This document shows, piece by piece, positions 60,753-64,000 of a stretch of 64,000 nucleotides of DNA. A program made the translations under genes and the position numbers. This stretch comes from a virus, in IMG/VR virus record IMGVR_UViG_3300020152_000019; one strand, given 5' to 3'. The notes beneath the pieces were generated by a model. The model made no database searches. It saw only the letters and a program-made list of their open reading frames with translations, and was not told where the DNA came from. Position 1 is the first letter of the stretch. Every line of letters begins with the position of its first letter.

Positions 60753-61343
60753 GCCCGAGTGGTGAAATTGGTAGACACAGCGGACTTATTGAAAAATTGA
60801 GCACCTACGAAAAATGCGGAAGTAAAACTTCAAACTAACCTTCCCGATCAAAAGGGAAAACTTGTAAGAAGGAATTTCGCAACCGAAAGGCGTATAAACA
60901 TTCTTCGGAATGGGTGAATCTCTTCAAATTCGGCGAACACTAAAAAAGCGATGAAGTCAGAGACTTCGCATAGTCGCATTAGCTCGGTGATACCGTCGAG
61001 CTAATTGATGTCAACGCCGAGCCAAGCCTGATAAGATCCTTTAAAGTATGGGTAAACTTCAGGAAGGTGTAGAGACTGTAAGGAGAGGATCTAAGTAGAG
61101 AGGGAGCAGGAATAGGTACCTGTTCACGGCAAGCAATTGCGTGTAATCAAATCGCCTTATCAAAACCCGATCTATACGATCAAGACACAGTCCAGACCAC
61201 GAACAGCGTATTCCATAAGTAGCTTCGGTCTTAACCTAAGCGAAATAGATGGTTGATCTCTGGCGTCGAAAGACGAAGTGGTAAGAAAATCCGCCGCTTA
61301 CCCGAGAGGGGGCGTACCGGTTCGATTCCGGTTTCGGGCACCA
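60753..61343 (+). tRNA. trnL: tRNA-Leu(TAA) split by a group I intron (exons 60753-60787 and 61286-61343)
   Basis: GCCCGAG/TTCGGGC acceptor stem; the splice rebuilds GCGGA-CTTAAAA-TCCGC; long variable arm; CCA. Confidence 0.92.
60788..61285 (+). mobile_element. group I intron (IC3-like, trnL(UAA) type), no ORF
   Basis: P/Q/R/S elements (CAAATTCGGCG, CGCCGAGCCAA, GAAGGTGTAGAGACTG, AAGACACAGTCC), P3 CTCTTC/GGAGAG, P9.0 ACCAC/GTGGT, terminal G after the U34 exon. Confidence 0.9.
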
Positions 61344-61345
61344 GA

Positions 61346-61990
61346 AAAGGTTCGGTAGTGAACCTCCCCTCTAAGCTTCGGCTTAGAGACAAGCCTCCTT
61401 TGGCAACTACCAAAAAGGCTAGGCAGGTAGCCTCCTCTCTGAATTTAGGTTTAGAGCCAAGTCCACTTGGACACCTGCCAGATTCACGTCGTGAGACGTT
61501 TATACTTAGACACCACCGTTGAAAGACGGTAAAGATCCAAAGCTTGCGTGCAGGGGCGGCCTGCTTCAAGAGCCATTTGAAATGCCGTAAAACCACCTGT
61601 AACTGGACTAAGTCCTAAGAGGGTGTAACTAATCCGGTAAGGCAACGGTAGTACTTGAATTAAGAATTAAAACGTGGATCGGTGAATCTTCTCAAAGTCG
61701 GTATGACTAAAAAAGCGATGAGGCTAGAGGTCTCTTAAGTTGCATTAGCTCGGTGTTATCGTCGAGCTAATTGATGTCAAAATCGAGCCAAGCTTAATGA
61801 TTCTATTAGATAACTTTCCTACCGGTGTGTTATTTGATAGTTTCTATTATGAAGGTGTAAGACTAATGGGAAGTACTGTTACTACTAAACTGACAGGAAG
61901 GGGAAGTTGGTAACAGTAAAAGGTCTAACCCATGAGCATAAATGAATCCTCCTGAGAAAAGTGTTCTGTTTATGTTTGTGGTTCTATTCT
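61346..61990 (+). ncRNA. free-standing group-I-derived structured RNA with a multi-hairpin 5' domain
   Basis: 61681-61930 is paralogous to the intron core with compensatory P3/P4 changes; 5' region rich in UUCG/GNRA hairpins; no exons found. Confidence 0.65.
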
Positions 61991-62045: not shown

Positions 62046-62182
62046 TTGAGTGCGGTTGAACTGTATTTACGATTGTTCTTAGCTTTGCATTCGTGAGAGT
62101 GTAAGGATATTGTAAATGCGGTTGTTATTACCTCCGCATTCGAGAAGAATCAAGAGAGTAACATCTCTTGTATTATTGTCGT

Positions 62183-62515
62183 ATGGAGAGGGTAAAACTT
62201 CTCTGAGACTTTCAAGGTGAAAGGCTTCTGGACGCGGGTTCGATTCCCGCCTCGTCCAATAAGTACATTCTAACGAGTGTGGTTATTGGGCGAGTACTGG
62301 TTTCGACAGGGGTTAAGTAGGTGAGAAGGAACGACACGTCCATGAGCGCGGACGTTAATCTGGGTTCAATAAAGTAAATGCTGCTAATGATAGCCATTTC
62401 CGCGCTGCTGCCTAAAAACAGCTAACGGATGAGGTCACTAATCTAGTTCGCTAGGTTAGGTCGTCTACTCTCCCGATAATGACGGAGTCCTTATACCCCA
62501 AACAGGTAGACGACA
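62183..62515 (+). ncRNA. ssrA: circularly permuted two-piece tmRNA (acceptor piece ends 62258; coding piece starts 62288)
   Basis: T-arm GCGGG-TTCGATT-CCCGC plus CTCGTCC-A precedes GGGCGAG-TACTGGTTTCGAC; G3-U70 pair; tag ORF 62380-62415 (AANDSHFRAAA*); outer ends approximate. Confidence 0.9.
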
Positions 62516-62521
62516 CACGAC

Positions 62522-62598
62522 GTGCCCATAGCTCAGTAGGATAGAGCAACAGCCTTCTAAGCTGTGGGTCGGGGGTTCGAATCCCTCTGGGCGCGCCA
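62522..62598 (+). tRNA. trnR: tRNA-Arg(TCT)
   Basis: GTGCCCA/TGGGCGC acceptor stem, ACAGC-CTTCTAA-GCTGT anticodon arm, CCA. Confidence 0.95.
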
Positions 62599-62606
62599 TT
62601 GTTTCT

Positions 62607-62662
62607 GTAGTAAACTGAACTCAATCGAGTCAGAATTTTATAACTGTTATCTCGTTAAGGAG
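62607..62662 (+). repeat. leader repeat copy 1
   Basis: GTAGTAAACTGAACTCAATCGAGTCAG...AACTG...CTCGTTAAGG. Confidence 0.8.
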
Positions 62663-62668
62663 ATTAAT

Positions 62669-62872
62669 ATGAATGCTACCGCTCAACAAGCTGCGGAACA
62701 ATGTATTAGGAAGCATCATTTAGTATTAGATGAAAAACATAAACAGCTATTAATCGGACTTTTCGAGCAAGTCGAAGTTACGAAAAAAGGTATTTATTTA
62801 CACGAGCTTGGGAATAAGATAAGTAATTTTATCAAAACCCAAAAACGTAAACAACGCATGAAATTGAATTAA
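62669..62872 (+). CDS. hypothetical protein
   Basis: AAGGAG RBS before MNATAQQ. Confidence 0.7.
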   Translation: MNATAQQAAEQCIRKHHLVLDEKHKQLLIGLFEQVEVTKKGIYLHELGNKISNFIKTQKRKQRMKLN

Positions 62873-62874
62873 GA

Positions 62875-62930
62875 GTAGTAAACTGAACTCAATAGAGTCA
62901 GTCTTTTTTAAACTGTGTTCTCGTTAAGGG
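62875..62930 (+). repeat. leader repeat copy 2
   Basis: GTAGTAAACTGAACTCAATAGAGTCAG...AACTG...CTCGTTAAGG. Confidence 0.8.
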
Positions 62931-62939
62931 GAAATTAAA

Positions 62940-63305
62940 GTGTCAAATCTTCATATTGTAAAAACTGAATCTACTAAGCTTCAGTCTCGTATTTATAATG
63001 TAATCAAAGTTCTAGCTGGTTTAAATAAAACCACAATTATCAGGAAAGAAATTGTTGATTACTCTCGCTTCACTATCGAACATCCTCAGGCTTATGTTCC
63101 TGATTTTGACTTCGAGTGGTGCGACTCTAAAAAGCATTATCGAGTGTATATCCATCAAGCATTTACTAACGAAGCTAAACGCCGTCGTGGTTACTGCATT
63201 GCTGTGATTAACGGACCACTCGCTGCTACCGAATTCGTGCAGATGTATAAGTTCTTACATAAGCACCGCGCCAATAACAAAGATTCTATGCAAGAAGCAG
63301 CGTAA
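62940..63305 (+). CDS. hypothetical protein
   Basis: 121 aa, GTG start after AAGGGG. Confidence 0.75.
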   Translation: MSNLHIVKTESTKLQSRIYNVIKVLAGLNKTTIIRKEIVDYSRFTIEHPQAYVPDFDFEWCDSKKHYRVYIHQAFTNEAKRRRGYCIAVINGPLAATEFVQMYKFLHKHRANNKDSMQEAA

Positions 63306-63307
63306 AG

Positions 63308-63810
63308 AATACCCTCTGCAATACACAGAGTATGGATGACAAACTCATATTACCGGGGTAAGCGCAAGCAGCCGTCGGATAATGGTGATAAGGTCTACCC
63401 AATGTAGGAGCCGTGATAGTTAGACATTGATCTATACAGATTCGTGTCTACCAAGCGTCTAGGACATCGCCTTCGCACGACAAAGCGAACAAGCCTTGTT
63501 AAACGGTCTAGATAGATTCTTTACTGACTCAACCAGTTTATGAATGACGCTTTTGCTGCTGTTGAACTTATCGTGCTGAAACTGATCATTTCAGCGGTGG
63601 AGAAAACCTTTTATTCGGTAGACCTTGTTCGAGGAGTATAAGGTGGACATAGAAGCTAGATAAGAGCCGGGACCGCACTGACTGGCGGAGTGTCAAGTCG
63701 TCTGATACCAATTTGATTACGGGGTAGCTATATCCCTGACGGCTTAATAGAAGTGGAAGGAAACTTTTGCCTGAAGGCAGTTGGGAGTGGTATCCTAATT
63801 GTCTTTGGAG
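63308..63810 (+). ncRNA. unidentified large structured RNA
   Basis: GC-richer gene-free region with nested long-range helices (63370/63744, 63390/63626, 63453/63552); ends approximate. Confidence 0.6.
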
Positions 63811-63832
63811 AAAAGTTTTTAATAATAAAGAA

Positions 63833-63871
63833 ACTAGAGAAAGGAGTAACATCCTTTCTCTAGGGTATTCT
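63833..63871 (+). terminator. intrinsic terminator
   Basis: CTAGAGAAAGGA/TCCTTTCTCTAG then a T tract. Confidence 0.75.
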
Positions 63872-63930
63872 TTTTTTGCTGTACCTGAGTCACGGCGGGT
63901 CTCCGTGGCATTTTTAATAGGAGTTTCTAA

Positions 63931-64000
63931 ATGAAACTGAAATTCACGAAAGACGCACAAGCAGTTATCGATGAAATTGCTAAACTTCCTACTCAAACTT
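63931..64000 (+). CDS. partial CDS running off the window
   Basis: AGGAG RBS, MKLKFTKDAQ... Confidence 0.6.
   Translation, partial: MKLKFTKDAQAVIDEIAKLPTQT

Follow-up and report, generated by a model that had tools for sequence, protein, structure and literature searches.

A candidate new family of large structured RNAs in the tRNA and tmRNA islands of uncultured giant phages

Structured noncoding RNAs longer than 400 nt are, to our knowledge, rare, and only about a dozen classes of them are known. Large RNAs of this kind have repeatedly proved to be ribozymes or RNA-only assemblies, the latter recently for ROOL, GOLLD and OLE. ROOL and GOLLD are phage RNAs of unknown function that are often located near tRNA islands and are assembled via kissing loops and A-minor contacts, and GOLLD, first seen in lake metagenomes, has been reported to pull down ribosomes (PMC12286853). 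Here, we describe a locus of similar size and setting in a 64,000-nt stretch of viral DNA (IMG/VR record IMGVR_UViG_3300020152_000019, hereafter the window). The window belongs to a metagenomic contig of 234 kb from an uncultured giant phage, and a large structural protein of this phage is only distantly related to proteins of annotated phages. An original prediction had placed a highly structured, unassigned RNA of about 500 nt at 63308-63810 and had likened it to ROOL and GOLLD in size and tRNA-cluster context. We find there a conserved RNA core of ~510-515 nt (63311-63825, + strand), and a tRNA or tmRNA island setting was seen in the loci that come with enough sequence.

According to the list of open reading frames and their translations, the flagged stretch is free of credible ORFs, and its G+C content (0.44-0.45 versus 0.32-0.33 in the left flank, 62650-63099) makes it the gene-free, GC-richer region that had been proposed. 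The minimum free energy of 63308-63870 is -178.4 kcal/mol, compared with -148.9 +/- 6.4 kcal/mol for 100 dinucleotide shuffles (z -4.58), none of which folded as well; this, together with the covariation found across eight lineages, bears out the high degree of structure that had been claimed. The extent of the core is given by the alignments and by an nhmmer family profile, which spans 63311-63833 end to end with seven relatives. The core begins at an invariant A-CCC immediately before hairpin P1 and, on the 3' side, stops where the long hairpin Pg stops. An intrinsic terminator follows at 63834-63877 (+ strand), as the original prediction had anticipated, and consists of a strong 12-bp hairpin (63834-63863) and then a seven-T run (63871-77), seen in the terminator scan, the sequence and the alignment; a transcript including it would be ~565 nt long. 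The family profile found no second copy of the RNA in the window.

The region behind the core differs between lineages, the spacing between core and terminator ranging from 10 to ~110 variable nt. In the alignment, the relatives have ~100 extra nt after the core and then another strong terminator of different sequence. The extra sequence is conserved among L003 (2130-2300), L006 (1095-1260) and L023 (1020-1190), where it includes AAATCACAGAAGAA...CGCTGCGATA ahead of the strong terminator; it is absent from the window and may be an optional 3' module. Additionally, the interval from the terminator of the RNA to the ribosome-binding site ahead of the following gene, which starts at 63932, contains another conserved hairpin at 63889-63909 (GTCACGG-CGGGTCT-CCGTGGC, then ATTTTT). 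The hairpin is also present in L006 and L023, right after their terminators, where a C-G pair of the stem has become U-A in both, a compensatory change. It might serve as an additional terminator or attenuator, or as an operator of the 160-aa gene downstream. The TCACGGC of its 5' strand is complementary to the invariant GCCGTGA of the RNA, a 7-nt match that could easily be due to chance.

The RNA was found in eight lineages in all, namely the window and seven other metagenomic phage lineages (L002, L003, L006, L007, L022, L023 and L024). The 121-aa protein encoded directly upstream has six homologues with 50-66% identity on metagenomic contigs, several of which have long ORF-free gaps after the gene, and blastn gave 68-70% identity to the window RNA over ~330 nt in L003/4/5, L006 and L023, as well as partial copies, truncated where the contigs end, in L007 and L022. 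Scanning metagenome contigs for motifs yielded L024, a more divergent full-length copy and the sole real one among four motif matches, while the eighth and most divergent copy, in L002, lies at the very end of its contig and was found with covariance model R1 of the 5' module (42.7 bits, E ~1e-8, a rough value from a short-calibrated model). All eight lineages are metagenomic, three of them (L002, L007 and L022) are truncated by contig ends, and two covariance sub-models were used instead of one full-length model. No similar sequence was found among annotated phage genomes (blastn 'distant'), and the 157-aa and 160-aa neighbour proteins used as queries retrieved nothing beyond themselves and led to no further contigs. 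When IMG/VR and 185,579 prokaryote genomes were scanned for motifs, all matches proved to be due to chance on checking with nhmmer or blastn, and the family is thus rare on present evidence; it may be larger, since exact-motif scans would miss copies as divergent as that of L002.

Nucleotide identity is 63% in the RNA core, compared with 58-63% in the upstream gene and 50-53% in the downstream gene, and a coding role for the core is excluded because the copies differ by single-nucleotide indels and the homologues have no ORF in common. In the 5' module (63311-63418; eight sequences), 16/20 pairs are changed on both sides with 90.6% of the cells paired, and in the 3' module (63666-63825; six sequences) the corresponding values are 19/39 pairs and 95.3%. 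For either module, 0/500 shuffles reach these values, and controls with slid positions gave 0-5 and 0-6 doubly changed pairs, respectively. Model-fitted alignments lean towards the structure of the model; the slid controls and independent MAFFT-based counts nonetheless agree. Our own counts on the RNAalifold structures of the two halves gave 28/69 and 28/66 doubly changed pairs versus 13.4 +/- 2.4 and 12.0 +/- 2.4 in shuffles, and helices that RNAalifold missed or drew wrongly carry double changes as well, in Pa at 4/6, in Pb at 6/8 and in Q at 4/7 pairs. Further, the modelled helices contain 124 G-U cells and 19 A-C cells, a ratio expected only for an RNA of the + strand, which is therefore taken as the RNA strand. 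The alignments show a secondary structure conserved in independent lineages, with its fold maintained by compensatory substitutions and with several unpaired junctions and loops kept invariant.

As read from these alignments, the RNA is laid out as two multi-helix domains followed by a long 3' hairpin, all on the + strand. The 5' domain begins with P1 (63314-63330), a 5-bp hairpin (63314-18/63326-30) with a 7-nt loop in which 3/5 pairs are doubly changed and 100% of the cells are paired. P2 (63334-63399, pairing 63334-40/63393-99; 5/7 pairs doubly changed) encloses P3 (63345-63388), a long bulged hairpin with double changes in 8/8 modelled pairs, and a near-invariant AAAC/UAAG internal loop separates the two. 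In the window and L002, P2 contains a tandem A-A/U-U mismatch (GGAUGA against UCUACC). The tip of P3 is a GNRA tetraloop in 6/8 lineages, GCAA in the window (63364-67) and GAAA in five relatives, with other tips in L022 and L024. The stretch that follows (63400-63416), mostly unpaired and containing the invariant AGGAGCCGTGA, is the most conserved of the family, being invariant in seven lineages and slightly changed in L002. Behind it, a variable element at 63421-63450 is a simple hairpin in the window and a ~75-nt branched element in the relatives.

Helix Q (63457-63/63507-13) is extended by Q2 (63464-66/63497-99; 1/3 pairs doubly changed), and the element as a whole (63457-63513) has a conserved asymmetric internal loop at 63500-06 and a variable tip. 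A possible pseudoknot across Q would pair CCGU (63411-14) with ACGG (63503-06), in pairs that never vary; a 7-bp version of this pairing competes with Q and is the one chosen by RNAalifold on seven sequences, yet it is Q that has covariation. At the site of the CCGU strand, L002 reads CAGU. Hairpin P6 (63516-63545, pairing 63516-26/63534-45) is kept in 7/7 sequences, and its inner half shows compensatory substitutions; a search of the alignments by eye for an 11-nt tetraloop receptor in P6 turned up none that is conserved. How the 5' domain is closed is ambiguous, the two candidates being a GCG/CGY core and an AUGU/ACGU pairing (63402-05/63547-50) with one compensatory change, in L022.

The 3' domain (63559-63750) is probably closed by CUGUUG (63559-64) and UAAUAG (63745-50), which are paired in 5/6 sequences and nearly invariant, with one consistent A-to-G change, and which form the weakest of the helices listed here. 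Within it, Pa (63567-63664, pairing 63567-72/63659-64) encloses the hairpins Pb (63574-63596) and Pc (63606-63644), the latter of variable length. The loop of Pb, CUGAUCA with the palindrome UGAUCA, is invariant in 5/6 lineages and absent from L024, the most divergent full-length copy. Three further helices follow: Pe (63673-63688, pairing 63673-76/63685-88; 2/4 pairs doubly changed, 100% of cells paired), Pf (63690-63708, pairing 63690-95/63703-08; 5/6 pairs doubly changed) and Pd (63721-63736), a hairpin with a GCUA loop and 4/6 pairs doubly changed. The helices of this domain are separated by invariant unpaired runs, namely CGGUGGAGA, GAAGCUAGA, AUUGA and GAAGUGGAAGGAAAC. The core ends in Pg (63760-63819), a long imperfect hairpin of ~23 pairs, 8/23 of them doubly changed and 96.5% of cells paired. 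Both halves of the RNA are conserved, and variability is limited to three hairpins.

Measured against this structure, the helix map of the original prediction fared unevenly. Every string that it quoted lies where it had been placed, and its hairpins at 63575-63595 (Pb, here 63574-63596) and ~63778-63801 are conserved in the relatives, whereas the hairpin at 63421-63450 is particular to the window. Its long-range pairs, as judged from the alignments, were largely wrong. The helix joining AGCCGTCGG (63370) and CTGACGGCT (63736) occurs in no relative, its 5' arm being the 3' side of the conserved P3. The 10-bp helix of AAGGTCTACC (63390) and GGTAGACCTT (63617) is real in the window, where 63390-99 can pair with 63617-26 and the minimum free energy fold uses this pairing, but it is confined to the window and its 3' arm lies in an extra insert in the window's Pc; in the relatives the 5' arm pairs instead with the strand just upstream, in P2. 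Of the predicted AAGCGTC/GACGCTT helix, a 3-bp core survives as the GCG/CGY pairing, but without covariation, and its GTC belongs to the covarying Q. The strand inserted in the window's Pc, GGUAGAC, is the consensus 5' strand of P2 in other lineages. Because the P2 mismatch is common to the window and L002 and because the insert equals this consensus, the partner strand of P2 may have relocated to the 3' domain in the sub-lineage of the window and L002; the copy in L002 (2749-2877) is cut short by the end of its contig.

In the window, the RNA closes a co-oriented RNA island (60.5-63.9 kb), which ends in the flagged stretch. The island includes a group I intron and its non-splicing paralog (60753-61990, blastn to each other 1e-25), the intron lying in a tRNA-Leu with a group I match in Rfam (60814-61211; 37.9 bits, E 1.2e-7), followed by a permuted two-piece tmRNA (62154-62506), tRNA-Arg(UCU) (62522-62598) and two small ORFs between the tRNA-Arg and the RNA. 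The tmRNA and tRNA-Arg are thus 0.7-1.2 kb upstream of the RNA, and a tRNA or tmRNA is found no more than 1.7 kb upstream of it in every locus with enough sequence (window, L002, L003, L006, L007, L022 and L024). No tRNA was found in L023, the sequence of which begins only 0.47 kb upstream of the RNA. In five lineages only 2-6 nt separate the start of the RNA from the stop codon upstream, in L024 its start is 57 nt behind a tRNA-Pro, and no conserved promoter precedes the RNA, which makes co-transcription with the island and processing of the 5' end probable. As side observations, an HNH endonuclease gene lies between the permuted tmRNA and a tRNA-Thr in L003 (448-915), immediately ahead of the 121-aa gene and the RNA, and is one more sign of homing elements trafficking through these RNA islands. 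The three long relatives (L001 5698-6225, L003 3550-4065 and L006 4607-5119) all carry, a few kb past the RNA and in the opposite orientation, a dihydrofolate reductase gene that is useful as a marker of synteny in this group of phages.

The neighbours of the RNA vary among lineages. Upstream lies a 121-aa gene, a 70-aa gene, a 157-aa gene or a tRNA-Pro, and downstream either the 160-aa family or, in L024, a 74-aa ORF and a tRNA-Leu; because the upstream neighbour differs between lineages, we regard the RNA as an independent module. The 121-aa gene, which in the window ends 5 nt before the RNA (62940-63305, + strand, from the ORF list), is its immediate upstream neighbour in five lineages; in L007 and L002 one other gene intervenes between the two, which in L002 is the unrelated 157-aa gene. 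In L024, the RNA sits between a tRNA-Leu/tRNA-Pro pair and another tRNA-Leu with no 121-aa gene nearby, and conversely four other lineages (L008-10, L029, L030 and L031) have the 121-aa gene but no RNA in the 3-6 kb of flanking sequence inspected. Model R1 also found no 5' module in the whole records of the three IMG/VR contigs L029-L031. The two being found without each other, co-occurrence does not support the link between the RNA and the 121-aa protein that had been suggested, and this gene is, on the loci compared, a frequent neighbour and not an obligate partner. The protein has no Pfam or PHROG match, and its AlphaFold model (pLDDT 84) is alpha-beta5-alpha, with weak and uninformative structural matches and no RNA-binding hallmark. 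The 121-aa family itself recurs in phage tRNA islands, with a tRNA or tmRNA within 2 kb in most of the window, L002-L010, L022, L023 and L029-L031.

On balance, and with moderate confidence, we favour the reading that 63311-63825 constitutes a gene in its own right, the product being a large structured noncoding RNA that belongs to a new family, is probably co-transcribed with the rest of the island and acts in trans as a folded particle. The RNA, which probably lacks a promoter of its own, would be made as part of the polycistronic transcript of the island, from which its 5' end would be cut out at a fixed site in the manner of the tRNAs, while its 3' end would be set by the terminator. It would then act in trans, folded into a compact particle that is stabilised by tertiary contacts, for which the GNRA tetraloop, the invariant junctions and the possible pseudoknot are candidates. 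Self-association through the palindromic UGAUCA in the loop of Pb is also conceivable, as a homodimeric kissing contact like those of the ROOL and GOLLD cages (PMC12286853). The loop is kept while 6/8 stem pairs change, which is the pattern expected of a loop making a specific contact; since L024 lacks the loop, such a contact may exist but is taken as a lead only. The RNA would serve the takeover of translation or of tRNA metabolism by the phage, the same niche as that of ROOL and GOLLD. Only tentatively would we go as far as a new class, either a self-assembling particle like ROOL and GOLLD, to which the palindromic loop and the GNRA tetraloop would point, or a new large ribozyme that would process or protect the RNAs of the tRNA and tmRNA island.

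Among other readings, a ribozyme that frees its own 5' end from the upstream message, or acts in trans on the tRNA-Leu, the tmRNA precursor or the tRNAs, would fit a size and architecture comparable to those of group I introns and RNase P, with multi-helix domains, invariant unpaired junctions and a possible pseudoknot, as well as a 5' boundary that is sharply conserved right after unrelated upstream sequences and a neighbourhood of RNAs in need of processing (the intron-bearing tRNA-Leu, the two-piece tmRNA and the tRNAs). We nevertheless consider it unlikely: the RNA matches no catalogued ribozyme (RNase P, group I and II introns, small self-cleavers), has no sequence kinship to the local group I intron or its paralog and no conserved flanking exons, and does not keep an RNase P-like P4 pairing, and chemistry cannot be read from sequence alone. 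The invariant single-stranded motifs could alternatively be binding sites for protein, the RNA acting as scaffold or sponge for some protein of the host or the phage, or else forming a particle together with the 121-aa protein, whose gene is so often close by; ribosome pull-down has been reported for GOLLD (PMC12286853). That the gene and the RNA each occur alone, that the protein model lacks an informative structural match and that GGA is not enriched, which speaks against a sponge of the CsrA/RsmA type, make this quite unlikely.

A role in cis, as a giant structured 3' UTR of the upstream message or as a leader or attenuator of the downstream gene, is suggested by two features of the locus: in five lineages the RNA abuts the upstream stop codon, and behind it there is always a terminator and, next, a gene of the same orientation. 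However, both neighbours differ between lineages, the variable distance from core to terminator comes without any alternative antiterminator pairing that we could find, and ~500 nt of conserved multi-domain structure is far beyond any known 3' stabiliser or riboswitch, all of which renders the cis-acting reading improbable. Finally, GC-richer islands devoid of ORFs can also be found at origins and pac sites, but an element that works as DNA (in replication origin, packaging or recombination) or chance folding from composition is essentially excluded by the 124:19 ratio of G-U to A-C, by compensatory changes beyond every shuffle and slid control, and by the terminator that closes the element.

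If the favoured reading of a trans-acting, stand-alone RNA is true, a third giant RNA, independent of and unrelated to the other two, would occupy the tRNA-island niche of phages, and this niche would be one that repeatedly selects giant RNAs. The carriers are a small clade of uncultured giant phages, and the RNA would represent an independent system for asking what giant tRNA-island RNAs do. With a compact ~510 nt, clear domain boundaries and natural variants in which hairpins are swapped or missing, it is also a practical target for structure probing and cryo-EM.

Comparison with known families agrees with the original prediction that the RNA carries no signature of RNase P, SRP, 6S or introns. 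At gathering scores, Rfam 15 gave nothing at the flagged stretch of the window; a permissive search of 63100-64000 (E<=10) gave four chance-level rows (microRNA, sRNA and cis-regulatory, E 0.7-7), and six relatives searched at E<=1 matched tRNA and tmRNA only. RNase P RNA (RF00010/RF00011, including reduced phage-borne copies) is likewise of catalytic size and can sit in phage tRNA islands, and two words that we take to belong to the E. coli RNase P RNA recur here, GAAUGAC and, in some relatives, GAAAGGUCCGG; the window, L022, L024 and L002 lack the CR-I-like word. RNase P RNA was rejected with no match at E<=10 and with ends that are unpaired into a P1, the 5' end being a local hairpin, and a P4-like pairing (GUCCGG/CCGGAC) is broken in L003, L022, L023 and the window in the alignment, without compensation.

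The local group I intron and its paralog are also structured, of similar size and part of the same co-oriented island. Kinship of the RNA to either of them or to the tmRNA was rejected on a best blastn match of E 0.35 over 11 nt, in the same run in which intron and paralog matched at 1e-25. The group I model (RF00028) had no match at E<=10 in 63100-64000 under settings that find the tRNA-Leu intron at 60814-61211, and the RNA has no conserved exons, its flanks differing between lineages. A group II intron was discarded as well, with no Rfam match, a start of ACCC in place of GUGYG and no 34-nt domain V-like hairpin in the sequence or the alignments. A sponge of the CsrB/RsmZ type (CsrA/RsmA) was set aside on GGA counts of 10-15 versus 10-12 expected, which 25-178 of 300 shuffles equal.

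The closest likenesses are to ROOL and GOLLD, in size, complexity and genomic niche only. Like it, ROOL (RF03087) is ~0.5-0.6 kb long, multi-domain and pseudoknot-prone, is located in phages or prophages, often beside tRNA islands, and has no known protein partner (PMC12286853), and the location in a phage near tRNA genes is shared by the RNA described here. However, the ROOL covariance model had no match at its gathering score, in the window at E<=10 or in the six relatives at E<=1, the helix layouts differ, and ROOL resides in Firmicutes prophages whereas this RNA resides in uncultured giant phages with a two-piece tmRNA of betaproteobacterial type. GOLLD (RF01998) is similarly phage-borne and ornate, lies next to or interleaved with tRNA genes and has conserved and variable sub-domains (PMC12286853), but its model, including the conserved 3' domain, matched neither the window nor the relatives, and it is at least 800 nt long, compared with ~510 nt for the present RNA, in which both halves are conserved. 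Because the models of ROOL, GOLLD, group I and II introns and RNase P all failed to match, the RNA is, on these sequence comparisons, a member of no named family and is filed as a new family within the loosely defined kind of large ornate phage RNAs near tRNA islands.
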